A stretch of 58,279 nucleotides of DNA from Candidatus Scatovivens sp. (GCA_045613965.1 JAZLBY010000065.1:1-58279); one strand, 5' to 3'. Shown: positions 2,635 through 38,922, numbered from the stretch's first letter. Program-made: numbers and translations. Notes: generated by a model from the sequence alone, not told the origin.

Positions 2635-2648
2635 TAAATGAGGTATAT

Positions 2649-3326
2649 ATGAAAAAGAAATTATTTATAGTTTTTTTGATGTTAATATTATGTACTATAA
2701 TAGTTAATTTGTCTTATGATTTTTTTATGGATGATAACTTAGTTACTATTAGAGAAAAACTTACTTATAGAAAAATTTATGCTGAAAGAGAAATATTAGA
2801 AAATATAAATGGAGAAAAAGAACTTTCACATAATGATATAAAAATTACTTTAGAGAATAATTCTTATGATAAAGAAACAGGGAAATTAAAAGCTACATTC
2901 AAAATAGAAAACATGAAAAATCAAATATCAATGCTTACATCTATGATAAGAGTACATGATAATAGTAATGTGTTTTATAATTATAGAACTGAAGGAAATG
3001 AACAATATGTAGATGATATTGATTATTTTGTTTATAAATATAAAATGTATTCACAATTATCAACTAAAGGATATAAACTTGATAGATTAAATGATACAAA
3101 ACATTTTTACTTTTATAAACCACCATATGTAGTTTATGATGAGAATCAAAAAGATATTTATTCGAATTTATTTATGATTGATCTAGATCTAGATTTAGGT
3201 AAAGGTTATGAAATAGATGATTGTATCTATGTAGAGTTTTTAGATTTAATTCATCATTCTGGATATGCTTATCAAAAGAAAGCATTTGATTATTTAGGTG
3301 AATTTAAATTTAAATTAGATATTTAA
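2649..3326 (+). CDS. hypothetical membrane-anchored protein
   Basis: RBS gaggt lies upstream. N-terminal hydrophobic segment LFIVFLMLILCTIIVNL. No recognisable catalytic motif. Confidence 0.6.
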   Translation: MKKKLFIVFLMLILCTIIVNLSYDFFMDDNLVTIREKLTYRKIYAEREILENINGEKELSHNDIKITLENNSYDKETGKLKATFKIENMKNQISMLTSMIRVHDNSNVFYNYRTEGNEQYVDDIDYFVYKYKMYSQLSTKGYKLDRLNDTKHFYFYKPPYVVYDENQKDIYSNLFMIDLDLDLGKGYEIDDCIYVEFLDLIHHSGYAYQKKAFDYLGEFKFKLDI

Positions 3327-10624: not shown

Positions 10625-11497
10625 ATGAAAAAATTCTTAGGAGCTTTATTAATTTTTTGTAGCGTTTTTAGTTTTAACAATGTATATGCATCGATTAATT
10701 ACTTTGATGCAAAAGAATTTACAATAAAAGTTAAAAATATAAATGAAAAAATTGAAAAGATAGAGCTTGTTAATTTTGAAGAATGTGAAATGGAAGAGAC
10801 TGGTTTTAATTATGAAACGACACATGAAGTAGTAGAACCATATGGAGATGGAATGATTGATCATTTAAAAGAACATGATACAGAAAATTATTTTGTTGAT
10901 CAGAAAGTTCATTATAATTATTTATCAGGAAGATTTAAAGATGATATAGAACATGCAATTGGTGGCGGCTTTTTTATGGAAGTGGCAGAAGATGGAACTA
11001 TAGATTATGATTATGCGTATGATCATATTTATAAAACTAAAGAAGATTTTGAAATTGGTTGTTCAATGGTGCTTCAACAAGGTGTTGTTTGTGCAAAAAC
11101 AACTAACTATAAATCTTATAAATTGACTCCTATAAAAGAACTTGATATATCAAATATAGAATCAAATGAATTTGTTTATAAACATGATGACATAAGAAAT
11201 TTGAAAATAGGATTGAGAATAAAAAATGAAAATAGTGAATATAAAACTTTTATAGCTCCAAGTGAATCTCATATAGGAATGTATAGATATGGAGGAAATC
11301 CTAGAATAGAAGAAGAGAAAATTATCGTTTTTGATTATTCTGGAGTATCATACGAATCAAATGTGGCTGCTTCATTTAATACTTATATAGAACCTTATGT
11401 GATAATTTATGGAAGTATAATAATTATTGTTTCAATACTTTTAATAATAATTTTTTTAATTGGTATTAATTTAAAAATGAAAAAATTAAAAAAATAA
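10625..11497 (+). CDS. hypothetical secreted protein with C-terminal membrane anchor
   Basis: RBS gaggtg upstream. Signal peptide MKKFLGALLIFCSVFSFNNVYA. C-terminal TM IIYGSIIIIVSILLIIIFLIGI followed by a basic tail. Confidence 0.65.
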   Translation: MKKFLGALLIFCSVFSFNNVYASINYFDAKEFTIKVKNINEKIEKIELVNFEECEMEETGFNYETTHEVVEPYGDGMIDHLKEHDTENYFVDQKVHYNYLSGRFKDDIEHAIGGGFFMEVAEDGTIDYDYAYDHIYKTKEDFEIGCSMVLQQGVVCAKTTNYKSYKLTPIKELDISNIESNEFVYKHDDIRNLKIGLRIKNENSEYKTFIAPSESHIGMYRYGGNPRIEEEKIIVFDYSGVSYESNVAASFNTYIEPYVIIYGSIIIIVSILLIIIFLIGINLKMKKLKK

Positions 11498-20384: not shown

Positions 20385-23300
20385 ATGTTACAAATTAAAA
20401 ATATTTCAAAACAATTTAAAACTGGTGATTTAGTTCAAGTAGCACTTGATGATGTTAGTTTGAACTTTAGAGATAGTGAATTTGTTTCTATTTTAGGACC
20501 ATCAGGTTCTGGTAAAACAACACTTCTTAATATTATTGGTGGATTAGATAGATATGATAAAGGTGATTTAATAATCAATAATGTTTCTACAAAAAAATAC
20601 AAAGATAGAGACTGGGATTCATATAGAAATCATACAGTTGGTTTTGTTTTCCAAAGTTATAATTTAATACCTCATCAAACAATTCTTGCAAACGTTGAAC
20701 TTGCACTTACTATAAGTGGTATATCAAAAAGAACAAGAAAAAGAAAAGCTTTAGAAGCTTTAGATAAAGTTGGATTAAAAGAACAAGCACATAAAAAACC
20801 AATGCAAATGTCTGGTGGACAAATGCAAAGGGTTGCTATAGCAAGAGCTTTAGTAAATGATCCAGATATTCTATTAGCTGATGAGCCTACAGGTGCTCTT
20901 GATACTGCAACAAGTGTTCAAGTTATGGAATTATTAAAAGAAGTTGCTAAAGATCGTTTAGTAGTAATGGTAACACATAACCCAGAACTTGCAGAACAAT
21001 ATTCAACAAGAATTGTTAAATTAAGAGATGGAAAAATAACAGATGATTCAAATCCTTTTAAAGTAGAGAAAAATTCAAAAGAAAAACCAAAACATAAAAA
21101 CTTAGGTAAATCTTCAATGTCAATGGCAACTGCGTTTACATTAAGTTTAAACAACCTTTTAACTAAAAAGGGTCGTACAATACTTACATCTTTTGCAGGA
21201 TCAATTGGTATAATTGGTATTGCGATGATATTATCGTTATCAACAGGTTTCCAAAATTATATAGATAAAATTCAAGAAGAGACATTAACTTCATATCCAC
21301 TTACAATAGAGTCTGAAACTGCTGATGGAATGTCACTTTTAATGGGACAAATGGCAAAAGATGAAGAGCCTGAAAAGAAGAGTGATAGAAAAGTAGTTGA
21401 AAAACAAAACATTGCTGATATGTTCTCAACTATTGGTAAGAATGATTTAAAAACATTCAAAAAACAATTAGAAGATGATAAAGAAAAAGTAGATGAAATG
21501 GTTGCTCTTACATCATATAGATACGCAGTAGTTCCAACTATATATACTGAAACTGATGATAAAGAACTTTTACAATTAAATCCAAGTGATTTTATATCAT
21601 CATTAATGGGTAGTTCATCAAGTTTAATGGGATCTGGAATTACGATTTTTGGTGAATTGATTAATGATCAAAAAATGATCGAGGAACAATATGAGATAAT
21701 TGAAGGAAAATGGCCTCAAAAATATGATGAGATTATGCTTGTGCTTCCAGATGAGCAATCTGTTTCTGATTTATTACTATATGCTTTAGGATTAAGAGAA
21801 TTAGAAGAACTTGAAGATATGATAGCTCAAATAATGGATGGCGAAAAAGTTGTAAATGACTCTAAACCATTAGAAATTAGTTACGATGAATTAATGAATC
21901 TTGAACTTAAATTAATAGATGCTACAAGTAAATATAAATATAATAGTAAATATAAAATTTATGAAGATATGAGCGATGATGAAACTCATATGAAAGAAGT
22001 TTATGAAAATGGAACTCCACTTAAAGTTGTTGCTATAGTAAAACCAACAACAGCTTCAGGAAGTTTAACATCAGGAGTTTTATATACAAGAGCTTTAACA
22101 GAACATGTAATAAAAGAAGCTGAAAAATCTGAAATAGTACAAAAACAATTAGCAGATAAAAATCTAAATGTATTTAGTGGAAAAAGATTTGATGATGAAG
22201 AAAAATCACCAGGACTTGATTTCCAAGATATGGTATCAATTGATGAAGATGCACTTTCAAAAGCATTTGGTGTAAACATTAGCGAAGATGATATCAAAAA
22301 ATTAACAGAAGGTTATATGGGAGAAATTTCTTCTGCTATAACAACTGATACTGATAAAGCAAAAAAAGCTTTCTTGAATGGTCTAAAAGGATTAACAAAA
22401 AATATATTAACTGAATATGTTTCTAAAAAAGGTGTAGGCGGAATCGCAATGATTAAGCTAAGCGAAGTTGATAAAATTGTTGATGAAGGATTAAATAGTG
22501 ATTCTAATAAAGAAATATTAGCTAAATTAGAAAAAGATTATGTAATACCAGCAGATACATTTAAATCGACAATGTATTCAGAAATGATAAAAGGTATTTT
22601 AAAAGGTTATGTATCTATGGTTGGTGCTGGTGGAATGGGCGGAGGCTCAATGCCAGGTATGCCAGGAGTTGGCGGAGGTTTACCAGGAGGAACTGGAAGT
22701 TCTGGTGGAAATACTAATACCAACACGAATACTAATACAAATACTGGAAACACAGCTGTAGGAAATACATCAACTAATACAAATACAAACACTAATACTA
22801 ATACTAATACATCAGTTCCAGGCGGAGGAGATGTAGGAAGTCTTGGCGGAGGTACATCTATTCCTACTGATTTAACAGCACCAATTGCAGCGGCAACTAT
22901 TGATACTATTGTAGATACTTTAGTGTCTCAAAAAGAAATTGTTGCTGTAGCTGATCAAGTTGGTCCTAAAATGACAGAAGCTGTTATGCAAAAATCAATA
23001 TTAACTAAAGTTGGAGAATTAACAGCTAAGTTAATGGAAAAAATGGCTAATGCATTTAATGTAGATACAGATAAATTTGCAGGAGCATTTAAGTTTGAAA
23101 TGGATGAAGAAGAAATGAAACGTTTATTCCAAGCAATGACTACTGCTACTGTAGAAAATTCATTTACAAATTTAATATCATTAGGATATCAAGATTTAGA
23201 TGAACCAACATCAATTTCATTCTATTTTAAAGATTTTGATTCAAAAGAATTATTCTTAGAATATTTAGATGATTATAATGAAAAAATAGAGAAAGTTGAT

Positions 23301-23771
23301 GAAGAAAAAGTTATTAATTACACAGATATTACAGGTATATTAATGTCTTCTGTAAAAACTATCGTTGATAGTGTAAGTTATGTTTTAATAGCGTTTGTAA
23401 GTATATCACTTATTGTTTCTTCAATAATGATTGGTATTATCACTTATATTTCAGTATTAGAACGTACTAAAGAGATTGGTATATTAAGAGCGATAGGTGC
23501 TTCAAAACGTAATATTTCATCAATATTTAATGCAGAAACATTTATTGTTGGATTGTTCTCTGGTATTATTGGTATAGTTGTTACACTTTTACTTTTAATA
23601 CCAACTAATGCGATAATACATTCGGTTAATGAAGATATAACAGCAGTACTTCCTACAGTGGGAGCTACAGTGCTTGTAATACTAAGCGTTGTGTTAACTT
23701 TAATTGGTGGATTAATACCATCAAAACAAGCTGCTAAGAAAGACCCGGTTTTAGCATTAAGAAGTGAATAG
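20385..23771 (+). CDS. fused ABC transporter ATPase + FtsX/MacB-type permease with a very large extracytoplasmic region
   Basis: Walker A GPSGSGKTT, signature MSGGQMQRVAIARAL, Walker B ILLADEPT. One TM near aa 270, then ~700 aa of extracytoplasmic sequence. C-terminal FtsX motif ERTKEIGILRAIGASKRNI with 3 TM. Confidence 0.85.
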   Translation: MLQIKNISKQFKTGDLVQVALDDVSLNFRDSEFVSILGPSGSGKTTLLNIIGGLDRYDKGDLIINNVSTKKYKDRDWDSYRNHTVGFVFQSYNLIPHQTILANVELALTISGISKRTRKRKALEALDKVGLKEQAHKKPMQMSGGQMQRVAIARALVNDPDILLADEPTGALDTATSVQVMELLKEVAKDRLVVMVTHNPELAEQYSTRIVKLRDGKITDDSNPFKVEKNSKEKPKHKNLGKSSMSMATAFTLSLNNLLTKKGRTILTSFAGSIGIIGIAMILSLSTGFQNYIDKIQEETLTSYPLTIESETADGMSLLMGQMAKDEEPEKKSDRKVVEKQNIADMFSTIGKNDLKTFKKQLEDDKEKVDEMVALTSYRYAVVPTIYTETDDKELLQLNPSDFISSLMGSSSSLMGSGITIFGELINDQKMIEEQYEIIEGKWPQKYDEIMLVLPDEQSVSDLLLYALGLRELEELEDMIAQIMDGEKVVNDSKPLEISYDELMNLELKLIDATSKYKYNSKYKIYEDMSDDETHMKEVYENGTPLKVVAIVKPTTASGSLTSGVLYTRALTEHVIKEAEKSEIVQKQLADKNLNVFSGKRFDDEEKSPGLDFQDMVSIDEDALSKAFGVNISEDDIKKLTEGYMGEISSAITTDTDKAKKAFLNGLKGLTKNILTEYVSKKGVGGIAMIKLSEVDKIVDEGLNSDSNKEILAKLEKDYVIPADTFKSTMYSEMIKGILKGYVSMVGAGGMGGGSMPGMPGVGGGLPGGTGSSGGNTNTNTNTNTNTGNTAVGNTSTNTNTNTNTNTNTSVPGGGDVGSLGGGTSIPTDLTAPIAAATIDTIVDTLVSQKEIVAVADQVGPKMTEAVMQKSILTKVGELTAKLMEKMANAFNVDTDKFAGAFKFEMDEEEMKRLFQAMTTATVENSFTNLISLGYQDLDEPTSISFYFKDFDSKELFLEYLDDYNEKIEKVDEEKVINYTDITGILMSSVKTIVDSVSYVLIAFVSISLIVSSIMIGIITYISVLERTKEIGILRAIGASKRNISSIFNAETFIVGLFSGIIGIVVTLLLLIPTNAIIHSVNEDITAVLPTVGATVLVILSVVLTLIGGLIPSKQAAKKDPVLALRSE
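22710..22812 (+). repeat. in-frame (AAT-ACN)n repeats encoding two (Asn-Thr)6 runs inside a Gly/Pro-rich low-complexity insert (22620-22860)
   Basis: The DNA reads aat act aat acc aac acg aat act aat aca aat act ... act aat aca aat aca aac act aat act aat act aat aca. The protein reads GGNTNTNTNTNTNTGNTAVGNTSTNTNTNTNTNTNTS. Confidence 0.9.
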
Positions 23772-23784
23772 TAAATAAATTGTA

Positions 23785-23812
23785 AAAGAGCAGAGAAATC
23801 TGCTCTTTTTTT
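23785..23812 (+). terminator. intrinsic terminator after the ABC gene
   Basis: Stem agagcag/ctgctct is followed by TTTTTT. Confidence 0.8.
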
Positions 23813-23962
23813 GTTATCAAAAAGACATAAACTTGTAACCTGAGTTTAATTGCTTTTAGTGCTTTTTTGGAATAAAATTATACTGTATAAATGGGTGAAA
23901 AAGCATCCAAAATGTTTTGGATATTTTAGGACCTAGAAATCTTGAAAGAGAAAAGATAAAGA

Positions 23963-24964
23963 ATGCTTAAGAAATTAATGATAACTTTTTGTCTTTTCAT
24001 CTTACTAATTGCAATAAATTCATATGCATCAACTAAAACTTGTTTTGTAATAAAAGATGTAACAAAATCATCAGATTCTGATAAAGTTACAATTAATTTG
24101 AGTTTGGAAAACCCAAATAAGAATATTACAAGTTGGAGTTTAGATGTAAAATATGATCAAACAAAATTAGAATTCGTTAATTCAAGAGCTGGTAAAGATT
24201 TAAGTGCTACTTTTAAATTAGCAGAAAACTTACCAAGCGAAAGTAGAGTTGCGATAGGAGCAGTTAGTTTTACAGGTTTTAAGAAAGCTGGAGATTATTA
24301 TTCTTTAACATTTAGAGTAAAAGATTTATCTGAAGATATACCTTTAGAAATAAATTTAAGAGAAATATCTGATAGTAAGGGTAATCTTATTGATTGTGAA
24401 GTAAAAAATGGGAAAATATTAATTCCTAAAAATAACGATGTTAAGGTAGAGGAAACAAAAGAAGAAAAGAAACAAGTAAAACAAGAGATTTCTAATTTTG
24501 AAAAGAAAGATATTGAATTATTAGAATCAATTGAAAATATTATAATTAGTAATGGTAATATTGAATTATTACCAGAAGATGAATTGATATATGAAATTGA
24601 ACATAACGATATATTAGAAGTTCTTGACGATGGAACAATGATTCCTAAAAAAGATGGAACTACTACTGTTAGAATAAAATTGAATGGAGAAATAATTGGA
24701 ACTGTTCAAATTTATGTTCAAAATGGAATAGTATCAAAAGTATCTAAAGCTAAAAATAAAAAAGATTTTATACCACAAGCAACAACTGATGAAGAAGTTA
24801 AAATTGATAAAGTTGTTGAAGAATATAGACTAAAATATTTAGCTATACAAAAAAGAGAAAAACAAAATGAGTTGCTAGTTGAATTAGTGCTTATTTTGAC
24901 ATCGATAACAATAATACTTAAGATGTTTTTATTTATTAGGAAAAACAGAGGAGGAACAAAATGA
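23963..24964 (+). CDS. membrane-anchored cohesin-domain protein (signal peptide, cohesin-like module, one Big_2-like module, C-terminal TM)
   Basis: Signal peptide MLKKLMITFCLFILLIAINSYAS. Cohesin-like block KVTINLSLENPNKNITSWSLDVKYDQTKLEFVNSRAGKDL...YYSLTFRVKDL. C-terminal TM LVELVLILTSITIILKMFLFI + RKNRGG. The stop overlaps the next start (ATGA). Confidence 0.7.
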   Translation: MLKKLMITFCLFILLIAINSYASTKTCFVIKDVTKSSDSDKVTINLSLENPNKNITSWSLDVKYDQTKLEFVNSRAGKDLSATFKLAENLPSESRVAIGAVSFTGFKKAGDYYSLTFRVKDLSEDIPLEINLREISDSKGNLIDCEVKNGKILIPKNNDVKVEETKEEKKQVKQEISNFEKKDIELLESIENIIISNGNIELLPEDELIYEIEHNDILEVLDDGTMIPKKDGTTTVRIKLNGEIIGTVQIYVQNGIVSKVSKAKNKKDFIPQATTDEEVKIDKVVEEYRLKYLAIQKREKQNELLVELVLILTSITIILKMFLFIRKNRGGTK

Positions 24965-27900
24965 GGATAAGAAGAAAGATAATTGCATCATTATTAATTT
25001 TAGCAATTTTAAGTCCTTTCATACCAAATTTGGTAACACATGCTAGTACACCAATTTTTTCATTACAAGTAAATGGTGTACCAAATGCAACAGCTATTGC
25101 AGATGTTGGTGAAACATTTTCAGTAGATGTAAATTTATCTGAGGGATTAGAAAATCAAAAAATGGTAACAGTAATGCTTGGATTTGATCCTGCTTACGTA
25201 GAACCAGTACCAGATATTGATGATGGGATTGAGAAAAAATTAATTACAGGAAAAAGTCTTAACGCAGATATTGCACCAGGTTATTCTGTTGCAACAGGTT
25301 TAATTGGAACAAACGATGTAATGATGACTTTTGTAACACCAGCAGGTATTGCTAAAAGTGGAAGAGTAGCAACTGTTACATTTAAAGTAATACAACAAGG
25401 TGACACACAAGTTGAAATTACTTCAGCAAGTTATTGTGCAGATCCAGAATCACCTGAAGCTGAATTAAACACACCTGTTATTATCCCAACAGTAAGTTCT
25501 GTAAATTTAAAAAATCCGATTCCAATGACTGGTCTTATAATTCAAACACCATCTATATTAATGAATAAAGGTGGAGGAAAAGTTATAACAGCTGAAAAAC
25601 AACCAGCTAATACAACAAATACTGATAGAATTATATGGACAACAAGTAATTCAGCAGTTGTAACTGTTAATGATGGACACTTAGTAGCCGTAGGACCTGG
25701 AACAGCAACAATTACTGCTAAATGTAGTGGATTTGAAGCAACAGCAGAAGTTGAAGTAAGAAATCCTCTAACTGGAGTAACAGTAAATGAAAATGAATTA
25801 AATTTATCAAAAGGTGATAAATATCAATTAGTTGCAGAAAGAGTACCAGCAGATACTACAAGTACAAGTAGACTTTCATGGGTTTCATTAGATAATAAAG
25901 TTGTAACAGTTGATCAAACAGGATTAGTTACTGCAGTTGGTACTGGTAACACAGAAGTAAAAGTATCATGTGGAGCTTTTTCTAAAACGGTAAAAGTTTC
26001 TGTTACAGCACCACTTCTTGGAATTTCATTCGATTCTGATGATATAGCAATTGATTTAGGAGGAAAGACAAAACTAAATCTAATTAAAGATCCGATTGAT
26101 ACAACAGATACAACACCAACAGAATGGTCTTCAAGTGACGAATCAATAGTAACAGTTGATGAAAATGGTCAAATTGAAGGTATTGCTCATGGTAGAGCAG
26201 TAGTAACTGCTAAAGTAGGTTCTTTTAAAGCAATGATTGCAGTTATTGTTAATGCTCATATCGAATCAATTGAAATTATAAATGATGCTATTGATGAAAA
26301 TAGAAATATAGAATTATATAAAGGTCAATCAACAGAATTATCAGTTGTATTTAAGCCAGATGTTTTTGTGGAAGCAAGAACTATTAAATGGAGTACTAAT
26401 GCTGATAATATTGTAAAAATAGAAAATGGAGTAATCACAGCATTAGCTCCTGGACAAGCAAAAATAAAAGCAGAAACAGTTAATAAAATAACTGATGAAA
26501 TAACTGTTACAGTACCATATGTAAATGCACAAAAATTAGTTATAGATAAAAATGAATTAGCACTTGAAAAAGGAGAGGCTGTTCAATTAAGTGCAACAAT
26601 ATTACCTGAAAATACAACTGATGATAAAACAGTAAAATGGAAATCATTAGATGGTTCAATTGCTAGTGTTGATGAAAACGGAGTTGTTACAGCAAAAGGT
26701 ACTGGATTTACAACAATAGTAGCTTCAGCTGCAGGACTAACAGCAACATGTCCAGTAACAGTAACATGTTCATTGACAGATATTACTTTAAATCATACAG
26801 AAATTTCAGCAGATCTTGGAGTTCCTGTAATAGATGTCTTAAAAGTAACTAAAGTTCCAGTTGATGCAACAATAGATGAATCAGAAACAATTTGGAGATC
26901 ATTAAACGAAACTGTAGCAACAGTTAATAATGGTATTATAACAGCAGTTGGACCTGGTACAGCAGTTATTGAAGCTGAATTAGGTGGAAGAATTGCTAGA
27001 TGTAAAGTTGTTGTAAATGTACAACTTACAGGAGTAGAACTTGAAAATGGTGATACACCATTAGAAATAAAAGTAGGACAAATGTCTAAATTAAATCCTG
27101 TATTTTTACCAGCAAATGTTACAAAAGTTCCTATTCCAGAATGGACAACATCTGATGAGAATATAGTAACAGTTGATAATAAAGGTTTAATAGTAGCCAA
27201 AAGTGAAGGTCAAGCTGAAATAACAGTTGATTATGGAAATGGTATTAAGGCTTCTAGAATTGTAAAAGTATCAAGAGTTCATGCGGATTCAGTAGTTTTC
27301 GATAAAAAGATTGAAACATTAATTAAAGGTGAAGAAGCTGTTCTAGTTGCTAAATTAGTTCCAGAACTAGCTGTAGATGAAATTTCTTGGTCATCAAGTG
27401 ATGAGTCTATTGCAACAGTTGATCAAGCTGGTAACGTAAAAGCAATTAAATCAGGAAAAGTTAAAATTACAGCAACATCTTCTAATGGAAAATCAGCTAC
27501 AATGGAAATTACAGTTAAAGAAGCACAACTTGAATTTGTAACATTAACTTTAGAAAAAACAGAATTAAAAGAAGGCGAAACAACAAAATCAACAGTAACA
27601 TTTAATCCTGAAACAATTACTGATGAGGTTACAATAACATATTCATCATCAAATGAATCAATGGCAACAGTTGATAACTTTGGTGTTGTTACAGCAAAAA
27701 AAGCTGGTGAAGTTATAATCACAGTTGATGTAATTGCAATAAATGATGCTGGTGATGAAAAAGGTTTTTCTTCACTAGTAGATTTAACAATTATAGAAGT
27801 TCCAACAACAGATGGACAAATAGATCCAGATAAAGAACCTACTGGAGATAATGAAGATAAAGATCAAGAATCTGAAGGTGATAAAGAAAATTCAGATACA

Positions 27901-28149
27901 ACAAACCCTGATGAAAATAAAGATCCTTCTAATGAAGAAAACAAAGATACAGAAACACCAAAAGAAGAAAATAAAGAAGAGACTAAAAAACCAACAACAA
28001 GTACAACAACTCAACAAGCAGTTGAAAGTTTAGTAACTTCTCCACATACAGGAGATATGAATATTAAAGCTCTAGCGGTAATGATGTTAGTTTCAATAGT
28101 AGGAATGTTCACTAGATTCAAAACGATTGATTTAATAATTAACAAATAA
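24961..28149 (+). CDS. cell-wall-anchored surface protein: N-terminal cohesin-like module, 9 Big_2 modules, acidic linker, SPHTG sortase-B-type sorting signal
   Basis: Signal peptide, then cohesin-like block VGETFSVDVNLSEG..MVTVMLGFDPAYVEPV...GRVATVTFKVIQQGDTQVEI. Nine recurrences of the Big_2 motif (for example VVTVDQTGLVTAVGTGNTEVKVS). A D/E/K/N-rich linker follows. The C-terminus is SPHTG + hydrophobic ALAVMMLVSIVGMF + TRFK. Confidence 0.85.
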   Translation: MRIRRKIIASLLILAILSPFIPNLVTHASTPIFSLQVNGVPNATAIADVGETFSVDVNLSEGLENQKMVTVMLGFDPAYVEPVPDIDDGIEKKLITGKSLNADIAPGYSVATGLIGTNDVMMTFVTPAGIAKSGRVATVTFKVIQQGDTQVEITSASYCADPESPEAELNTPVIIPTVSSVNLKNPIPMTGLIIQTPSILMNKGGGKVITAEKQPANTTNTDRIIWTTSNSAVVTVNDGHLVAVGPGTATITAKCSGFEATAEVEVRNPLTGVTVNENELNLSKGDKYQLVAERVPADTTSTSRLSWVSLDNKVVTVDQTGLVTAVGTGNTEVKVSCGAFSKTVKVSVTAPLLGISFDSDDIAIDLGGKTKLNLIKDPIDTTDTTPTEWSSSDESIVTVDENGQIEGIAHGRAVVTAKVGSFKAMIAVIVNAHIESIEIINDAIDENRNIELYKGQSTELSVVFKPDVFVEARTIKWSTNADNIVKIENGVITALAPGQAKIKAETVNKITDEITVTVPYVNAQKLVIDKNELALEKGEAVQLSATILPENTTDDKTVKWKSLDGSIASVDENGVVTAKGTGFTTIVASAAGLTATCPVTVTCSLTDITLNHTEISADLGVPVIDVLKVTKVPVDATIDESETIWRSLNETVATVNNGIITAVGPGTAVIEAELGGRIARCKVVVNVQLTGVELENGDTPLEIKVGQMSKLNPVFLPANVTKVPIPEWTTSDENIVTVDNKGLIVAKSEGQAEITVDYGNGIKASRIVKVSRVHADSVVFDKKIETLIKGEEAVLVAKLVPELAVDEISWSSSDESIATVDQAGNVKAIKSGKVKITATSSNGKSATMEITVKEAQLEFVTLTLEKTELKEGETTKSTVTFNPETITDEVTITYSSSNESMATVDNFGVVTAKKAGEVIITVDVIAINDAGDEKGFSSLVDLTIIEVPTTDGQIDPDKEPTGDNEDKDQESEGDKENSDTTNPDENKDPSNEENKDTETPKEENKEETKKPTTSTTTQQAVESLVTSPHTGDMNIKALAVMMLVSIVGMFTRFKTIDLIINK
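25513..27800 (+). repeat. array of 9 tandem Big_2 (bacterial Ig-like group 2) modules, a protein-level repeat
   Basis: Modules were counted by the recurring motif x(V/A)T(V)(D/N)xxGx(V/I)xAxxxGxAx(I/V). The DNA copies are diverged, not identical. Confidence 0.75.
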
Positions 28150-28156
28150 TAAAGTT

Positions 28157-28188
28157 GGAGGCATAGAAAAATAATATGCCTCCTTTTT
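28157..28188 (+). terminator. intrinsic terminator after the large surface protein gene
   Basis: Stem ggaggcata/tatgcctcc is followed by TTTTT. Confidence 0.8.
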
Positions 28189-28212
28189 ATAATAAATAGG
28201 AGTTCAGAAATT

Positions 28213-29022
28213 ATGGCAGTAAAAAAACAACCAAAAGATTTAAGTAAAATGAGTAAAAGACTACAAAATAAAGTTATTAGAAATGCTGTATTATTTGTGC
28301 TTTTCTTAATAATGTTTATTTTCTCAGTTGTAAATTTAATTAGATGGGCAGTTTATAATGGTAAATCTGAAAGTCTAAAAAACCAATTGATTGAAAGTAG
28401 TTTTTCTGAGATTCCAAAAGATAAATATGCAAATACAAGAGATACTAAAAAGAAAAATCCAGTTGATTTTGACTCTTTAAAAGATAAAAATACTGATACT
28501 GTTGCTTGGATAAAAATTCCAGGTACAACAGTTGATTATCCAGTTGTTCAAACAACTAATAATGAATATTATTTGCATAAAGATTTTGATAGAAAATATA
28601 GTACATGTGGATGGATATTTATGGACTTTAAAAATAGTGCAAAAATGATTGATAAAAACACTGTTTTATATGGCCACAATATTAAGTCAGGTATAATGTT
28701 TGCTGACTTACAAAAGATACTTGATAATGAAATTGAAGGAGATGTAAATATTGAAGTTTATACTCCATATGAAAAATTAAATTATAAAGTATTCTCATCA
28801 TATATGACTTATCCAGATGATTATGCTATAAAATCAAATATTGTTGATGATGAAACACAAGGAGCATTTATTCGCGAAATGCTTGATAGATCAGAAACAA
28901 TTTATAATTTAGTACCTTATAAAACAGACAAAGTTTTAACATTATCTACTTGTGATGATAGTGGTTCACAACGTATTTTAATTCATGCTGTTTATGTAGG
29001 TGGAGAAATTTATAAATATTAA
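28213..29022 (+). CDS. srtB: class B sortase
   Basis: N-terminal TM. Motif TVAWIKIPGTTVDYPVVQTTNNEYYLHKDFDRKYSTCGWIFMD. Catalytic His in LYGHN, Cys in LTLSTCDD, Arg in QRILIHA. Confidence 0.85.
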   Translation: MAVKKQPKDLSKMSKRLQNKVIRNAVLFVLFLIMFIFSVVNLIRWAVYNGKSESLKNQLIESSFSEIPKDKYANTRDTKKKNPVDFDSLKDKNTDTVAWIKIPGTTVDYPVVQTTNNEYYLHKDFDRKYSTCGWIFMDFKNSAKMIDKNTVLYGHNIKSGIMFADLQKILDNEIEGDVNIEVYTPYEKLNYKVFSSYMTYPDDYAIKSNIVDDETQGAFIREMLDRSETIYNLVPYKTDKVLTLSTCDDSGSQRILIHAVYVGGEIYKY

Positions 29023-29033
29023 AGGATTAACAT

Positions 29034-31025
29034 ATGAAGAATAAAAAACTTATAGTTTTAATAATATTTTTAATTGGATTATTTGTAGCAATTCCATCAT
29101 TTGCAACTGAAATGGTGGAAACTGTTGATATGAGTCCTAAAAATTATTATAAGTTAAGAGAAGAATTTTATAAAAAACCAAATAAAGAACCTGCAAAGTT
29201 TTCAGTTGCAGTTAATAGTCAAACATCGATAGTAGATTATTTAGCTACTGAAGCGATGGTACAAAAAGAAAATATTGATATATCTCAGTTTAATATTACA
29301 ACAAGCGAGCTTACTAAAATAGTATTAGCTGTTTTTGATAGACCTGAAATGTATGCATTAGGTTCATCATATAAGTATTATTATAGAATAGATCCAGATA
29401 CAAATATAAAATATGTATTAAGCATAGAATTTAAATATATAATGACGCTTAATGAATATTTAGAAGCAGAAACAATAATAAATAAAGCAAAAAATTTATA
29501 TTTATCTGGGATCAAACCTGAATGGAATGATTTAGAGAAAATAGTATATACAAATAATTTCTTGTGTCAATATTGTACATATGCATCAAATATAATAGAG
29601 TCTTCTCACACATTATATGGAGCTTTAGTTGATAGATTACCAGTTTGTGATGGTTATTCAAAAGCATTTAAATTTTTAACTGAAGCAGCTGGAATAAAAT
29701 CAATTGTTGTTACAAGTTTTGATATGGAACATGCTTGGAACATGGTTGAATATAACGGTGATTATTATCATTTAGATGTTACATGGAATGATGATAATGC
29801 TGGAGTTGGTAGAACAACTTATAGATATTTTTTAGCTAGCGATTCAGGATTTTCTGATTCAAATAGAAATCACTATTCATGGATGGCAGAAAATGATTTA
29901 ACTGCTAATAATACTCAATTTGATGGAACTAATACACCATGGGGTATTGATTATTATAGAAGTTATTTGATGTATAATGATGGTTACTGGTATTCTTTAG
30001 ATAATATAAAAAATGTAAATTATATAAATATTTGCAAACAAAGTTTAAGAAATTTTAATGATAAAACTATTACTAAGAAAGATACTTCAGACTTAGTTTT
30101 TGCAAATCCAAGTTATACAACTGATAATGATTATATTTATTTTACAACTCAAAATATGATTATGCAGATGAAATTTGATGGACAAGATATGAAGTCAATT
30201 TTTATGAATCCTAATCAAGGTTCTAAAGTGCTTTTTGGAATAGAATATAAAGATAAAAAATTCTATTATGATACTCTTGATTTAGTTAATAATTCTGCAA
30301 ATACATCTACAAGAAAAACTTATGAATTAAATTTTGTATTAATTCAAGGTGTAGAAGTAGATGAAGTTATAGAGTTAAATGTTGATGAAGAAAAAACATT
30401 AACTGCAAAAATATTACCAGAAAATACTAGTATGGATAAAAAATTAACTTGGACTTCATCAGATACATCAGTAGCAACTGTTGATCAAAATGGAGTTGTT
30501 AAAGGCGTTGCAGCAGGTAATGCGGTAATAACTGTTATGACATCAAATGGAAAGAAAGATACTTGTTCTGTAACAGTAAATGGAATTCCAGAAGAAGTTG
30601 TATATACTAATTTAGCAATAGAAGAAATTGATGGAAAATATGTAATTAAGTTTCCAGTTAAAACAACAATAAATTCATCATTGAGTATTGATAATTTCCC
30701 AGTTTTAGGTAAGGGTTATACCGTTGAAGTTTATACAAGTGATGATGCATTTAAATCTGTTTTAGATTATTATGGTTCAAAAAATATTATAAAAATAAAA
30801 AAAGATGGTAATGTTGAACAAGAATATCTAGTAATTGTAAATGGAGATGTAAACGGTGATGGAAAAGCAATGTTATATGATGCTTTTCAAATACTAAAAG
30901 ATACAATTCTTCCAGGTACAGTATTAGATGATTTTGATAAATTGATTAGAGATGCAAATAATGATGGATTTATAATGTTATATGATGCATTTCAATTCTT
31001 GAAAAGATCAATTTTAGGTATTTAA
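29034..31025 (+). CDS. secreted transglutaminase-like (Cys-His-Asp) enzyme with one Big_2 module and a C-terminal dockerin
   Basis: Signal peptide. Core motifs VCDGYSKAFKFL (Cys codon at 29646-29648), EHAWNMVEY and YHLDVTWND. Big_2 motif SVATVDQNGVVKGVAAGNAVITV. Dockerin segments DVNGDGKAMLYDAFQILK and DANNDGFIMLYDAFQFLK. Confidence 0.8.
   Translation: MKNKKLIVLIIFLIGLFVAIPSFATEMVETVDMSPKNYYKLREEFYKKPNKEPAKFSVAVNSQTSIVDYLATEAMVQKENIDISQFNITTSELTKIVLAVFDRPEMYALGSSYKYYYRIDPDTNIKYVLSIEFKYIMTLNEYLEAETIINKAKNLYLSGIKPEWNDLEKIVYTNNFLCQYCTYASNIIESSHTLYGALVDRLPVCDGYSKAFKFLTEAAGIKSIVVTSFDMEHAWNMVEYNGDYYHLDVTWNDDNAGVGRTTYRYFLASDSGFSDSNRNHYSWMAENDLTANNTQFDGTNTPWGIDYYRSYLMYNDGYWYSLDNIKNVNYINICKQSLRNFNDKTITKKDTSDLVFANPSYTTDNDYIYFTTQNMIMQMKFDGQDMKSIFMNPNQGSKVLFGIEYKDKKFYYDTLDLVNNSANTSTRKTYELNFVLIQGVEVDEVIELNVDEEKTLTAKILPENTSMDKKLTWTSSDTSVATVDQNGVVKGVAAGNAVITVMTSNGKKDTCSVTVNGIPEEVVYTNLAIEEIDGKYVIKFPVKTTINSSLSIDNFPVLGKGYTVEVYTSDDAFKSVLDYYGSKNIIKIKKDGNVEQEYLVIVNGDVNGDGKAMLYDAFQILKDTILPGTVLDDFDKLIRDANNDGFIMLYDAFQFLKRSILGI
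30840..31022 (+). other. dockerin module (two EF-hand-like Ca2+-binding segments) at the C-terminus of the transglutaminase-like protein
   Basis: Both 12-residue loops fit D-x-N-x-D-G-x(5)-D (DVNGDGKAMLYD and DANNDGFIMLYD). Each is followed by a helix AFQ(I/F)LK. Confidence 0.75.
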
Positions 31026-31033
31026 ATAAAAGG

Positions 31034-31444
31034 ATGTTTATGAAAGAGATAGAAATAGTAAAAGAAAGATTATTGAATAAAGACGCAAGTTTAGTTGTAA
31101 TGTTTAAAGATGGAAATATAAAGGAATACTATAATAAAAGAGTTATAGATATTGTAAGTATTTTAAAAGAAAATGAAACAGCATTAAATGATGCAATAGT
31201 AGCTGATAAAATTATTGGTAAAGTTGCTGCGTCTCTTTTAATAAAAGGAAAAATAAAAGCTCTTTATGCAAAAACATTGAGTAAATATGGAAGAGAAGTT
31301 CTTGATGAAAACGGTATTTATTATGAGTATGATGAAGAGACTGAATATGTTATAAATAATGATAAAACTGGAATGTGTCCAATGGAAAATAAATTTAAAG
31401 ATGAAAAGAATTTAGATATAATCTATGATTTTTTTGTTAATTAA
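31034..31444 (+). CDS. DUF1893-family protein
   Basis: 136 aa with the pattern SLVVMFKDGNI..VADKIIGKVAASLL..GKIKALYAKTLS..NNDKTGMCPMEN, as I recall for DUF1893 (TM1506-like) proteins. Confidence 0.65.
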   Translation: MFMKEIEIVKERLLNKDASLVVMFKDGNIKEYYNKRVIDIVSILKENETALNDAIVADKIIGKVAASLLIKGKIKALYAKTLSKYGREVLDENGIYYEYDEETEYVINNDKTGMCPMENKFKDEKNLDIIYDFFVN

Positions 31445-31468
31445 TGGCATCGATAGATGTCATTTTTT
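31444..31468 (+). terminator. intrinsic terminator ending the srtB operon
   Basis: Stem atggcatc/gatgtcat (one G-U pair) is followed by TTTTTT. Confidence 0.7.
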
Positions 31469-31618
31469 ATTATAAAGTGAGCATTAAAGAGATAATGTAT
31501 AAAAGCGTGTGATAAATGTTTAAATATATGTATTTTTATTTAAATTCTTGCTTGCTTTTAATGTGTTTTATAAATATAATGGTTGTGTAATTTATATATA
31601 AGAAAGGATTTTTTTAAT

Positions 31619-32248
31619 ATGAAAAAAGCATTAATAATAATTGCAATTGTTGCAGTTGTGGCTGTAGCAGCTTTCTTTGTAGTAAAACCAATGTTACAAA
31701 AAGCTGAAAATACAGTAGATGAAGTAAAATCTAATTTAGTTTTAAATACAGCAGAAGATTTAACAAACTTCGTAACAAAATTATATGAAGGAAATGATAA
31801 TTTATATGGTAGTTTAATGACACAAGCTATAGATCCAACAGATAATGATAGTGTTGCATATATGACAGGGTTAGATAATGGAAATGATGTACAATTTTGT
31901 GTTGTTTCTGAACCAATGATGTCATCACAAGCATATTCTTTAGTTATTGTTAAAGTAAAAGAAGGTGTTGATGTAAATGCAGCAGCTAAAAAAATGAACG
32001 AAAACATTAATATGAGAAAATGGATTTGTGTTGAAGCTGAAAAAGCTTATACAACAAGCAGTGGAGATATAATCTGCTTAGTAATGTCTTCAGAAGAGAT
32101 GGCTAAACCAGTTTATGAAAAATTCAAAACATTAGCTGGCGGTATAGGAGAAGAATTCGTAAGAACAGCTGAAGTTGTAGAAATGCCTGATGATATGATG
32201 CCTGGAATGGATGAAGTTCCAGCTTATGATGGTGAACCAGCTGTATAA
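31619..32248 (+). CDS. hypothetical membrane-anchored extracytoplasmic protein
   Basis: The ATG at 31619 gives MKKALIIIAIVAVVAVAAFFVV. The longer ORF-track start at 31583 lacks an RBS. The C-terminal tail is acidic and Pro/Met-rich. Confidence 0.65.
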   Translation: MKKALIIIAIVAVVAVAAFFVVKPMLQKAENTVDEVKSNLVLNTAEDLTNFVTKLYEGNDNLYGSLMTQAIDPTDNDSVAYMTGLDNGNDVQFCVVSEPMMSSQAYSLVIVKVKEGVDVNAAAKKMNENINMRKWICVEAEKAYTTSSGDIICLVMSSEEMAKPVYEKFKTLAGGIGEEFVRTAEVVEMPDDMMPGMDEVPAYDGEPAV

Positions 32249-32266
32249 TAAATGATAAATCAATAA

Positions 32267-32296
32267 AGCGCCGCAATTATTTACGGCGTTTTATTT
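32267..32296 (+). terminator. intrinsic terminator
   Basis: Stem gcgccg/cggcgt is followed by TTTaTTT. Confidence 0.65.
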
Positions 32297-32312
32297 GTTA
32301 TAAGGAGTACGT

Positions 32313-33698
32313 ATGATTTTTTCAAGTATAACTTTTTTGTTTTATTTTTTACCGGTACTTTTAATCATATATTATTTAGTGCCTAAAAAAGCAAAAAATA
32401 TAGTATTGCTTGTTTCATCAATGTTATTTTATTTTGTTGGTGAACCAAAGTATATTTTTTTAATGCTTGTTTCAATATTAGTTACATATATATTTGGACT
32501 GTTAATAAGTAAATATGAAAAACATTCTAAAATTTTGCTTACAGTAGCATTAATTATTACTGGAAGCTTTTTAGTGTTCTTTAAATATTTTGACTTTTTA
32601 ATTGAAAATGTTAATTTATTTTTAAATAATAAACTGGATTTATTACATTTAGCTCTTCCTGTAGGAATCTCTTTCTATACATTCCAAATGATGAGTTATT
32701 TAATAGATGTATATAGAAAAGAAGTTCCAGCTCAAAAGAATATTTTGACATTAGCGTTATATGTTGTATTATTTCCTCAATTAATAGCAGGACCAATAGT
32801 TAGATATACAACAGTAGTAAAAGAATTAGAAGATAGAGAACATACTTTTGAAAAGTTTTCAAAAGGAGTAACAAGATTTACAATAGGTCTTGGTAAGAAA
32901 GTTTTAATTGCAAATGTAATAGGAGAACTTGCTAGTATATTCTTAGCATCAGGAGATAGAAGTGTTTTATATCATTGGATGTATGGAATTGCAGTAATGA
33001 TGCAAATTTATTTTGATTTTTCAGGATATTCAGATATGGCAATTGGTCTAGGAAAGATGTTTGCGTTCGAGTATAATGAAAACTTTAATTATCCATATAT
33101 AGCAACAAGTATAACAGAGTTTTGGAGAAGATGGCACATGTCACTATCTTCATGGTTTAGAGATTACGTATATATACCACTTGGTGGAAATAGAGTAAGT
33201 AAAATTAAATGGATTAGAAATATTTTTGTTGTATGGTTATTTACAGGAATATGGCATGGAGCAGCTTGGAATTTTGTAGTGTGGGGATTATATTTCGCGG
33301 TAATACTATTAATAGAAAAAATATTACTTAAAAAATATTTAGATAAAATGCCTAAAATATTTTCTAACATTTATACTTGTATACTAGTAATGATAAGTTT
33401 TATTATTTTTAATGGTAATGGAATCAAAGATATTTCAGAGAATCTTTTAGGATTAATAGGATATAATGGAATACCACTCGTAAGTGCAGAATCTATTTAT
33501 TATTTCAAAAGTTATTTTATAATTTTTGTTTTGGCTATAATTGGTTCAACACCACTTATGAAAATGATAGTAAATTCAGAAAAATTAAAGAAAGTATCAA
33601 ATGTATTAGAACCAGTATTTGTAGTAATAATTTTACTAGTATCTACAGCATTTATTGTTGATGGTTCATTTAATCCATTTTTATACTTTAGATTTTAG
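32313..33698 (+). CDS. MBOAT-family membrane O-acyltransferase (AlgI/DltB-like)
   Basis: Polytopic protein with the MBOAT signature FWRRWHMSLSSWFRDYVYIPLGGNR and a downstream WHGAAWNF. Confidence 0.85.
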   Translation: MIFSSITFLFYFLPVLLIIYYLVPKKAKNIVLLVSSMLFYFVGEPKYIFLMLVSILVTYIFGLLISKYEKHSKILLTVALIITGSFLVFFKYFDFLIENVNLFLNNKLDLLHLALPVGISFYTFQMMSYLIDVYRKEVPAQKNILTLALYVVLFPQLIAGPIVRYTTVVKELEDREHTFEKFSKGVTRFTIGLGKKVLIANVIGELASIFLASGDRSVLYHWMYGIAVMMQIYFDFSGYSDMAIGLGKMFAFEYNENFNYPYIATSITEFWRRWHMSLSSWFRDYVYIPLGGNRVSKIKWIRNIFVVWLFTGIWHGAAWNFVVWGLYFAVILLIEKILLKKYLDKMPKIFSNIYTCILVMISFIIFNGNGIKDISENLLGLIGYNGIPLVSAESIYYFKSYFIIFVLAIIGSTPLMKMIVNSEKLKKVSNVLEPVFVVIILLVSTAFIVDGSFNPFLYFRF

Positions 33699-33707
33699 GA
33701 GGGAATT

Positions 33708-34784
33708 ATGAAAGTAAAAAATATTATAATTACAGCATTATTCTCTCTTATAACAGTAGGATTTTTGATAATGAATATCGCTATAGAAGACAAAGATATC
33801 TCATTAGAAGAGAGAAGAAAACTTGCTAAATTACCAGAGTTTACAAAGGAAAATATATTTTCAAGTGATTTGATTAATAAGTTTGAAAGTTATGCTGTTG
33901 ATCAAATTGCGTTTAGAAAAGAATTAAGATCTTTGAAATCTCTTGTAAATGTTAAACTATTAGGGCAAAAAGATGATAATAAATATTTTGAAAAAGATGG
34001 TGCTATATATAAAATTGAATATCCAATTAATTATTCAAATCTAGAAAAAACAACTAATCTTTTGAAAAATGTTTATGATAAATATTTAAAAAATATGAAT
34101 GTGTATTATGCAATAATACCAGATAAAAATTTTTATTTAGAAGATGATCATTTAAAAATTAATTATGATGAATTAAAAGAATTGGTTAATAAAAAATTCA
34201 CAAATATAGAGTATATTGATATATGGAATGAACTTAGTTTAGATTCTTATTACAAAACAGATATACACTGGAGACAAGAACATTTAGAAAAAGTAGCAAA
34301 TAAAATTACTACATCAATGGGAAATGAAGATTTAAATTCTGCATATGAAAAACAAAATGTCGGTAAATTCTATGGAACATACTATGGTCAAATTGCAGCT
34401 GAAGTTGAAGCAGATGAGATGTATATTTTAAAGAATGAAATTATAGATAATGCGGTTGTATATAACTATGAAACAAATGAAGTTTTAGGAGTATATGATA
34501 CTAAAGACACTAATGATAAATATGATATTTATTTATCAGGAGCAACACCACTTATTGGAATTAAAAACCCAAATGTAAAAAATGGTAAAGAGTTATTAAT
34601 ATTTAGAGATTCATTTGGAAGTAGTTTAGCACCACTGTTAATAGAAGATTATGAAAATATAATATTAATTGACTTAAGATATATTTCGAGTCAAATAATA
34701 GATAAATTTGTTGAATTTAAAGATGGACAAGATGTACTTTTCATATATAGTACAATGCTCTTAAATCAAAATATCCTAAAATAA
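33708..34784 (+). CDS. DHHW-family (AlgX/AlgJ/DltD-like SGNH) extracytoplasmic partner of the MBOAT
   Basis: N-terminal TM anchor. DHHW-position motif YYKTDIHWRQEH (DIHW variant) and FRDSFGSSL. Confidence 0.7.
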   Translation: MKVKNIIITALFSLITVGFLIMNIAIEDKDISLEERRKLAKLPEFTKENIFSSDLINKFESYAVDQIAFRKELRSLKSLVNVKLLGQKDDNKYFEKDGAIYKIEYPINYSNLEKTTNLLKNVYDKYLKNMNVYYAIIPDKNFYLEDDHLKINYDELKELVNKKFTNIEYIDIWNELSLDSYYKTDIHWRQEHLEKVANKITTSMGNEDLNSAYEKQNVGKFYGTYYGQIAAEVEADEMYILKNEIIDNAVVYNYETNEVLGVYDTKDTNDKYDIYLSGATPLIGIKNPNVKNGKELLIFRDSFGSSLAPLLIEDYENIILIDLRYISSQIIDKFVEFKDGQDVLFIYSTMLLNQNILK

Positions 34785-38445: not shown

Positions 38446-38922
38446 ATGCAAAAAGAAGACTATTTAAAAGAAATAATTGATAAATATTCTGATATGGTAT
38501 ATAGAGTTGCACTTACTAGATGCGGAAACGTAGAAAATGCAGAAGATGTATTTCAAACTGTTTTTATGAAATTAAGTGAAAAGATGCCTAAATTTAAATC
38601 TGAAGAACATACAAAAGCTTGGCTTATAAAAGTAGCTATAAATTGTTCAAAAAATATTAATACTTCATATTGGAATAAAAAAGTTGTTACATTAGATGAA
38701 AATATTGAATTTGAAACAAAAGAGGAATCGAATGTTTTTTCAATAGTTTGCGAACTGCCTCAAAATTATAAGACAGTAATATATTTATTTTACTATGAAG
38801 GCTACAAAGTAAATGAAATTGCAAAACTTATGAGTAGTACAGAAGGTACAATAAAAACATGGCTATATAGAGCTAGAGAAGTTTTAAAAACTAAATTAGA
38901 AGGAGGATTTGAAAATGAATAA
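38446..38922 (+). CDS. ECF (sigma-70 family group IV) RNA polymerase sigma factor
   Basis: Region 2 VYRVALTRCGNVENAEDVFQTVFMKL. Region 4 HTH YEGYKVNEIAKLMSSTEGTIKTWLYRAREVLK. Confidence 0.85.
   Translation: MQKEDYLKEIIDKYSDMVYRVALTRCGNVENAEDVFQTVFMKLSEKMPKFKSEEHTKAWLIKVAINCSKNINTSYWNKKVVTLDENIEFETKEESNVFSIVCELPQNYKTVIYLFYYEGYKVNEIAKLMSSTEGTIKTWLYRAREVLKTKLEGGFENE

Follow-up and report, generated by a model that had tools for sequence, protein, structure and literature searches.

A probable cohesin–dockerin surface-display cassette with its own class B sortase and a transglutaminase-like cargo in uncultured gut Clostridia

The 58,279-nt stretch of Candidatus Scatovivens sp. DNA analysed here (GCA_045613965.1, JAZLBY010000065.1:1-58279; referred to throughout as the window) carries four consecutive genes at positions 23963-31025. 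They encode a membrane-bound cohesin protein (CohTM), a scaffold in which a cohesin is followed by nine Big_2 modules and an SPHTG sorting signal (Sca), a class B sortase (SrtB) and a cargo protein that ends in an X module and a dockerin. The region is probably a self-contained cohesin–dockerin surface-display cassette distinct from the cellulosome, and the protein it displays is most likely protease- or transglutaminase-like, with no carbohydrate enzyme involved. The window is AT-rich (about 24-35% G+C per 2-kb segment, mostly 25-30%), and nearly all of its genes lie on the + strand. A preliminary description of this DNA, made from the sequence alone, had placed five open reading frames (ORFs) in and directly behind the region, and ORF calling returned all five at the same coordinates. 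The four genes of the cassette and the hairpin between them comprise the following features.

23963-24964, + strand: CohTM, single-cohesin protein of 333 aa with an orthologue in every intact locus (Pfam Cohesin); signal peptide aa 1-22, cohesin aa 29-153 (nt 24047-24421), Ig-like domain about aa 190-255, transmembrane helix aa 304-325 (nt 24872-24937), basic tail.
24961-28149, + strand: Sca, single-cohesin wall scaffold of 1062 aa (Pfam, profile comparison, sorting-signal scan); signal peptide aa 1-28, cohesin aa 45-170 (nt 25093-25470), nine Big_2 modules aa 185-927 (nt 25513-27741), low-complexity linker aa 928-1026, SPHTG nt 28039-28053, hydrophobic stretch and basic tail to nt 28146.
28157-28189, + strand: intra-cassette hairpin with T-run, terminator or attenuator, between the scaffold genes and srtB (folding, conservation).
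28213-29022, + strand: class B sortase; membrane anchor at the N-terminus about aa 20-48, YGHN His motif aa 153, TLSTC Cys motif aa 243.
29034-31025, + strand: cargo protein of 663 aa (Pfam, alignment, structure prediction); signal peptide aa 1-24, Cys-His-Asp core aa 163-248 (nt 29520-29777; C205, H233, D248), beta-rich domain about aa 300-435, Big_2 aa 446-511 (nt 30369-30566), X module aa 520-602 (nt 30591-30839), dockerin aa 603-663 (nt 30840-31022).
30846-30881 and 30951-30986, + strand: the two calcium loops of the dockerin, both canonical DxNxDGxxxxxD.

Related loci, numbered L001-L017, were gathered from the contigs of cargo homologues and by conserved-peptide scans of species-genome and metagenome collections. 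CohTM scores 32.1 bits on Pfam Cohesin (PF00963) over aa 29-153, above the gathering threshold of 24.1, and has a further HL_N-beta/Big-like match at aa 209-248. Its signal sequence, together with a C-terminal hydrophobic helix (aa 304-325) directly followed by the tail RKNRGGTK, suggests a type I membrane protein with its cohesin outside the cell. The CohTM gene is broken into two or three ORFs in L005 (215-673, 921-1220), L006 (5037-6043) and L015 (245-1256), through frameshifts that come from either assembly errors or decay of the gene, the other three genes being intact there. L017 encodes at 10767-11351 a 195-aa cohesin protein (Pfam Cohesin, 40.5 bits) that appears to have no C-terminal membrane helix and seems to be a free-standing cohesin.

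For Sca, a Pfam scan of the full-length protein listed no cohesin, and the isolated N-terminus (210 residues) gave 27.0 bits against the same threshold, with seven of seven orthologues tested likewise matching. The profile of this N-terminus matches solved, type-II-like scaffoldin cohesins (3l8q, 1qzn and 5g5d, E = 7.9e-10 to 6e-4, 3l8q being the best at 7.9e-10) and aligns with the CohTM-family profile at an hhalign probability of 95.7%. It is followed by nine Big_2 stretches (Pfam, E = 7.5e-78) and a C-terminus consisting of SPHTG-DMN, a hydrophobic stretch and TRFK.

The Sca start codon and the CohTM stop codon share the ATGA at 24961-24964, and this 4-nt overlap of the two scaffold genes is kept in eight of nine intact loci. 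Behind Sca lies the hairpin GGAGGCATA-N9-TATGCCTCC with a T-run (28157-28189; -16.9 kcal/mol, z = -4.4), which was overlooked by the terminator scan because its loop is 9 nt long. In the interval behind the scaffold gene and ahead of srtB, 10 of 12 loci have a stable hairpin (the window, L001, L002, L004, L005, L007-L010 and L016; absent in L003 and L006). Its stem core, G-GGCAT...ATG-CTC, is invariant in nine aligned loci among which loop length varies and the cassette proteins are only 30-55% identical.

The sortase gene product scores 171.2 bits on TIGR03064 (NCBIfam; cut-off 153.75) and matches solved SrtB structures at 1e-23 to 6e-31 (best 5.7e-31), including Clostridioides difficile SrtB (5gyj/4ux7). 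The latter cleaves the T-G bond of SPKTG, SPQTG, SPSTG and PPKTG, motifs that are usually followed by D (PMC4155245), and SPHTGD, as a predicted sorting motif, fits this clostridial SrtB motif class, (S/P)PXTG. No description of SPHTG as a sorting motif was found in the literature searched. The sequence SPHTGDMN is identical in all 11 Sca orthologues examined, whose cohesins are 22-50% identical, and the scaffold is the sole sorting-signal ORF in the window and in each of L001-L010 by pattern scan, which also returned two short antisense ORFs. The cassette sortase and C. difficile SrtB are alike in class, in structure (match at about 1e-23) and in having adhesin-like multidomain surface proteins as substrates (in the cassette, as predicted), with S-P-x-T-G-D followed by a hydrophobic stretch and a basic tail. 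However, C. difficile SrtB has a housekeeping role and about seven substrates, which are scattered and of which none has a cohesin, whereas the cassette sortase is encoded beside one invariant predicted substrate. A role of the sortase in pilus assembly was set aside, on the grounds that each locus has a single substrate, with a full membrane-anchor tail, whose non-Big_2 part is a cohesin; this assessment included no search for a pilin motif.

The cargo protein matches Transglut_core (PF01841) at 26.0 bits (threshold 23) and has one Big_2 module by Pfam. Two predicted models (predicted local distance difference test, pLDDT, 85 and 88) have an alpha/beta papain-like core followed by a beta-rich domain. 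The best match to the cargo head is TglA of Streptococcus pyogenes (9crn; 3.3e-10 by sequence and 3.8e-8 by fold). Further matches are the bacterial transglutaminase 4xz7, the putative cysteine protease 3isr and arylamine N-acetyltransferases, all of which are Cys-His-Asp acyl-transfer folds. TglA shares the motif pattern CxGY...HAWN...DxTW with the cargo head, but lacks the Big_2 module, X module and dockerin and is only about 20% identical to it; nothing usable on the function of TglA was found in the literature, so no function was transferred from it. The same type of head is elsewhere fused to ChW repeats (Clostridium sp. MSJ-8) or to SLH domains, both wall-binding devices, which argues that surface tethering is its normal state and that the dockerin provides the hold in this case. 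The preliminary description had read from this DNA an N-terminal cohesin on both scaffolds, nine Big_2 modules and a sorting signal on the larger one, the ATGA overlap, a terminator after the scaffold gene, a class B sortase and a transglutaminase-like Cys-His-Asp core, and each of these readings holds, the terminator as a hairpin with T-run that may terminate or attenuate.

The dockerin consists of two tandem segments, in each of which an EF-hand-like Ca2+ loop is followed by a near-identical helix (DVNGDGKAMLYD + AFQILK at aa 605-622 and DANNDGFIMLYD + AFQFLK at aa 640-657). An AlphaFold model of the cargo places the dockerin helices at 614-625, 633-639 and 649-661, preceded by the X module as a beta-sandwich (aa 520-602). 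Judged from its sequence, the dockerin is a divergent subtype, named YDAF here, and the family-level evidence for it is good. Across 21 aligned homologues, the Asp and Gly residues of the loops and the YDAF residues with which the helices start show little or no variation, Pfam Dockerin_1 recognises 12 of the 21 (E <= 0.01; lowest 7.2e-7), one dockerin of this type (in a 444-aa protein of L002) reaches 25.0 bits on that model, and the 62-residue dockerin profile matches solved dockerins over its full length (4uyq, 1.9e-4; 3ul4, 2.7e-4). The two halves are almost identical, a hallmark of dual-binding-mode dockerins, and dual binding is therefore predicted.

No module of the cargo is better conserved than the dockerin, which has a mean identity of 57% (X module, 41%), and its conservation is similar to that of the CohTM cohesin, which has a mean pairwise identity of 53%. 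The cohesin at the tip of the Sca stalk is the fastest-evolving module, at 34% mean pairwise identity. The Big_2-X-dockerin tail, of about 225 residues, is common to unrelated cargo heads (E about 1e-84 to the family profile).

About 20 clusters of cargo homologues have the full architecture. The four-gene order of membrane cohesin, wall cohesin, srtB and dockerin cargo recurs in at least 12 other loci of gut Clostridia metagenome-assembled genomes (MAGs; L001-L010, L015 and L016) and is rearranged in L017, and the idea of a self-contained kit put forward in the preliminary description is thereby supported. In L017 the cargo genes are placed upstream of the scaffold gene. The loci fall into three unrelated contexts: context A, which is that of the window, with patatin, Na/Ca exchanger and ABC-FtsX genes upstream and DUF1893, MBOAT and DHHW genes downstream; context B, in which the cassette lies between two paralogous acetate kinase genes; and context C, in which it lies between a RelA/SpoT-HD and an adenosine-deaminase gene. 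One MAG (GCA_965315525.1) has two copies of the cassette, one in context B and one in context C. The acetate kinases of the pair around the cassette are 63-65% identical (L002 821-2005 and 13299-14483; L010 3304-4500 and 15376-16569), and their bracketing position suggests insertion into, or duplication around, the ackA locus.

Every YDAF-type dockerin gene found with enough flanking DNA adjoins the cohesin genes. Apart from L012, in which a transglutaminase-like homologue has ChW repeats in place of the dockerin, everything that the pattern scans recovered from 185,579 species genomes and 241 million metagenome records was a cassette locus (six in each collection) or a cut contig. The Sca cohesin is represented by 15 clusters in an exhaustive representative search of 1.84 billion proteins. 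The carriers are all uncultured Clostridia from animal-gut or unspecified samples, including Ca. Scatovivens (Clostridiaceae), sheep rectum and a mouse gut catalogue. The cassette is real and rare, and it is probably self-contained as a display system.

Several points weigh against the interpretation of the region as a self-contained display cassette. The window cargo scores 14.3 bits on Pfam Dockerin_1 (PF00404), for which the threshold is 22.9; the preliminary description of the dockerin as a two-segment one stands, with both Ca loops and their helices in place, while the word 'textbook' overstates it. The dockerin part of the cargo model is at pLDDT 63-76 only. Distance-matrix (mirror-tree) comparison does not discriminate the partner of the dockerin (r = 0.77 for CohTM and 0.72 for Sca), and its partial correlations are unreliable owing to one mis-assigned sortase entry (L016), only mean identities being used here. 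The catalytic Cys is Ser in four of 21 family members, of which three have lost the His too. Lastly, the dockerin census covers the 58-kb window and the related loci, and dockerins borne by carbohydrate-active enzymes (CAZymes) or by other proteins may be present elsewhere in the genome.

The change from Cys to Ser is found in P0004, which is 67% identical to the window cargo, and in P0025-P0027, which are the three that also lack the His; the dockerin is kept in all of them. These proteins are possibly pseudo-enzymes or Ser-nucleophile variants. The loss of the triad in such relatives indicates that catalysis is not universal to the cargo family and that some members may only bind; for the window cargo, catalysis is plausible.

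The low Dockerin_1 score, together with the lack of a significant solved-cohesin match to the CohTM-family profile (the best, weak match being 5nrk, E = 0.34), would also suit an arrangement in which the cohesins and the dockerin are alike to their namesakes in fold only and do not bind one another. The cassette would then comprise a membrane protein, a sortase together with the Big_2 adhesin on which it acts, and an enzyme that is secreted freely and in which the EF-hand pair serves as a Ca2+ stabiliser. Many non-cellulosomal cohesin- and dockerin-like modules have no demonstrated partner, which counts in favour of this explanation. It is nevertheless very improbable, as dockerin genes strictly co-occur with both cohesin genes across three contexts and changing cargo heads, the high conservation of the dockerin within the cargo is hard to explain for a mere stabiliser, and elsewhere ChW or SLH, both bona fide wall anchors, take the position of the dockerin on the same cargo head.

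Relatives of the window cassette have one to three dockerin genes each, the window having one. Other docked heads in these relatives are LRR_4/LRR_8, BspA-type LRR_5, LRR_5-CAP-Big_2, CHAP-Bsp-ricin-Big_2, LRR_5-transglutaminase-like and Big_2-only. The presence of leucine-rich repeat (LRR), CAP and CHAP/ricin proteins on the same sockets makes the cassette look like a small surface kit with which gut clostridia adhere and modify proteins. It also bears on the possibility that the transglutaminase-like protein is a processing enzyme, docked so as to cleave or cross-link the Big_2 scaffold or its wall linkage, in the manner of ZmpI/PPEP-1 of C. difficile, the gene of which lies beside the SrtB substrates that it releases. 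A protease-fold gene invariably adjoins the scaffold and sortase genes, a long low-complexity linker immediately precedes the Sca sorting signal, and protease control of clostridial SrtB substrates has a precedent (PMC4591827). This explanation is unlikely, however, since the same docking tail is found on LRR, CAP and CHAP/ricin proteins that have no processing role, and some cassettes (L003 and L006) retain the scaffold and sortase although their cargo lacks the catalytic Cys or His. It also gains nothing from an Rfam scan of 23500-32400, in which the sole match was sub-threshold (sR52, 21 bits, gathering score 50) and no known riboswitch, such as one for c-di-GMP, or other Rfam element was found.

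A further alternative to a self-contained display cassette is that the locus is a fragment of a larger system of the cellulosome or amylosome type, in which the two cohesin proteins would be anchoring scaffoldins with CAZyme-borne dockerins or dockerin-bearing scaffoldins, encoded elsewhere, as their main clients. The profile of the Sca cohesin is nearest to cellulosomal scaffoldin cohesins, single-cohesin sortase-anchored scaffoldins such as ScaE do occur in true cellulosomes (PMC2930009, PMC5301203), the presence of a second, canonical dockerin on the cargo of some relatives points to other dockerin types in these organisms, and the view of the host genome is limited to the 58-kb window. Against this, a cellulosome has a multi-cohesin primary scaffoldin, usually with a cellulose-binding carbohydrate-binding module (CBM), whereas neither scaffold of the cassette has a CBM or more than one cohesin, the remainder of each being Big_2 or Ig-like domains by Pfam. 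Cellulosomal dockerins are borne by glycoside hydrolases, carbohydrate esterases and polysaccharide lyases, and Pfam scans of the dockerin proteins of the window and L001-L017 found no glycoside hydrolase, esterase, lyase or cellulose-binding module, the docked parts being transglutaminase-like, LRR, CAP, CHAP, ricin-lectin and Big_2 only; the absence of a carbohydrate-active module, already remarked upon in the preliminary description, thus extends to the loci scanned.

Of the 54 ORFs listed for the 58-kb window, 28 were scanned with Pfam, which showed no additional cohesin, dockerin or CAZyme among them, and a six-frame dockerin-motif scan found no second dockerin. A dockerin-profile search of a 5.8-billion-protein set returned short fragments only, and the cargo census accordingly rests on the Pfam scans of the loci. 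The restriction of the YDAF subtype to cassette loci in the whole-collection scans (L012, which has no dockerin, excepted) also argues against a cellulosome fragment, as do the hosts, which are animal-gut Clostridiaceae-like MAGs and not known fibre degraders. That the locus is a fragment of such a larger system is quite improbable. Lacking a multi-cohesin scaffoldin, a CBM and CAZyme clients, the cassette was filed as a non-cellulosomal cohesin–dockerin display system, and it is a compact variant on the known socket-and-plug principle of the cellulosome type, not a novel kind of system.

Cohesin–dockerin pairing is also reported in some toxin/glycosidase complexes of Clostridium perfringens, in which glycoside hydrolases (sialidases, hyaluronidases) are organised. 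The Ruminococcus bromii amylosome (PMC4611034) resembles the cassette as a gut Firmicutes use of this pairing for a non-cellulose purpose in which some scaffolds are sortase-anchored, but it still organises glycoside hydrolases (amylases), whereas the clients of the cassette are transglutaminase-like, LRR, CAP and CHAP proteins. The nearest precedent is ScaE of Ruminococcus flavefaciens FD-1 with its group-4 dockerin proteins. ScaE is a sortase-anchored single-cohesin scaffoldin to which symmetric group-4 dockerins bind in dual mode (PMC5301203), and it also binds an NlpC/P60 X-dockerin protein (PMC3573020). A transglutaminase-like protein bearing a dockerin has a precedent in the same strain, the genome of which encodes ten such proteins; in sub-group 4b, five of six dockerin proteins are encoded head to tail in one probable operon, four being transglutaminase-like and one LRR (PMC2930009).

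ScaE and the cassette are alike in architecture, with one cohesin and a sorting signal on the wall scaffold, an X module and symmetric dockerin as the client tail (in the cassette, as predicted from sequence), clients that dock, or in the cassette would dock, directly at the cell surface, and a client list with transglutaminase-like and LRR dockerin proteins. ScaE differs in having LPXTG and in its place in a sca cluster that belongs to a true cellulosome, one that comprises ScaA, ScaB, ScaC and over 220 dockerin proteins, among which CAZymes are numerous. The cassette, in contrast, has no sca cluster, SPHTG with a dedicated class B sortase, a cohesin carried on nine Big_2 modules, a second, membrane-anchored cohesin that is probably co-translated with the first, and no CAZyme client seen. 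The Sca cohesin is also nearer by sequence to type-II-like cohesins than to ScaE, which is not among its PDB profile matches. The client types and their direct docking on a sortase-anchored cohesin are therefore already known, and what differs in the cassette is the lack of a surrounding cellulosome, the dedicated class B sortase with its invariant SPHTG, the nine-Big_2 stalk, the second, membrane-anchored cohesin and the portability of the whole as a cassette.

The operation of the cassette may be proposed as follows. The two scaffold genes, which overlap at ATGA, would be translated in a coupled manner, and all four products would be exported by Sec, as their N-terminal signal or anchor sequences suggest. 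By analogy with C. difficile SrtB, the membrane-bound sortase would cut Sca at SPHT|G and join it to peptidoglycan, leaving the Sca cohesin at the tip of a stalk of nine Big_2 modules, while the 333-aa CohTM would be held in the membrane by its C-terminal helix with its cohesin outside the cell. The secreted cargo would then dock through its X-dockerin tail, non-covalently and in a Ca2+-dependent manner, on one or both cohesins, which would place it at the membrane, at the tip of the stalk or in both positions. The displayed Cys-His-Asp module would most likely act on an extracellular protein or peptide, by proteolysis, transamidation or peptide-stem cleavage.

Two different dockerins are present on some related cargo (L010 10164-12821 and 12885-15203; L011 937-3255; L014 376-2655; L015 7901-10180), an internal canonical one (for example DLDRDGRFTSLDASRIL / DLDGNGVVNANDASIML; Dockerin_1 23.6-32 bits where scanned) and a C-terminal one of the YDAF type. 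Given this second, canonical dockerin, the two cohesins and the two dockerin types may form matched pairs. A tentative and rather doubtful extension of the display model is a two-tier system, in which the conserved membrane cohesin would take hold of dockerin proteins emerging from the Sec channel and the fast-evolving cohesin at the stalk tip would present them outward, or in which each cohesin would serve a different dockerin type. If true, the cassette would be a minimal portable 'adhesome' that shows cohesin–dockerin use beyond carbohydrate breakdown, for example with a tethered transglutaminase or protease attaching the bacterium to host or dietary proteins or remodelling them.

The cassette of the window is bordered by the following features.

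23784-23809, + strand: terminator-like hairpin ending the upstream ABC/FtsX gene, at the upstream edge of the cassette (scan: 11-pair stem, T-run).
31034-31444, + strand: DUF1893/TM1506 gene, a neighbour only (Pfam E = 1.3e-32).
31443-31464, + strand: terminator-like hairpin downstream of DUF1893 (terminator scan).

The DUF1893 gene had been counted in the preliminary description as part of the sortase operon. It is absent in two of the three contexts, does not lie beside the cassette in L002, L003, L005 and L006, and is separated from it by two genes in L004; it was thus rejected as a cassette member on synteny and belongs to the neighbourhood. The upstream gene (20385-23771) encodes a fused ABC ATPase-FtsX permease of 1128 aa with a long low-complexity insert (GGSMPGMPGVGGGLPGG...NTNTNTNTNT), and is found beside the cassette throughout context A. 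Downstream, at 31583-34784, are genes for a DUF4358-like protein, an MBOAT acyltransferase and a DHHW protein, a trio with a possible role in envelope modification; its synteny extends to L001 and, judged from ORF sizes, to L008, and it is unrelated to the cassette in contexts B and C. Further away, at 38446-40969, a gene for an ECF-type (extracytoplasmic function) sigma factor overlaps that of a 686-aa protein taken up nearly in full by a Beta_propel domain (PF09826, E = 1e-154), which together are a sigma/anti-sigma-like pair also found in L001. Three ORFs of 402, 225 and 784 aa, at 1426-3326 and 6785-9139, have no Pfam match at E <= 1e-5.

What is understood of cohesin–dockerin systems is unchanged by this cassette. 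Since 2010, transglutaminase-like and LRR dockerin proteins have stood out, without explanation, as an oddity in the very large cellulosome of R. flavefaciens, and such clients are now seen in a reduced, CAZyme-free cassette of four genes with its own sortase and two cohesins only. This setting makes the role of non-carbohydrate dockerin proteins approachable with few recombinant proteins. The cassette also offers a rare pairing of a membrane-anchored with a wall-anchored cohesin, a candidate new SrtB recognition sequence in SPHTG, and a naturally minimal display system consisting of sortase signal, stalk, socket and plug.

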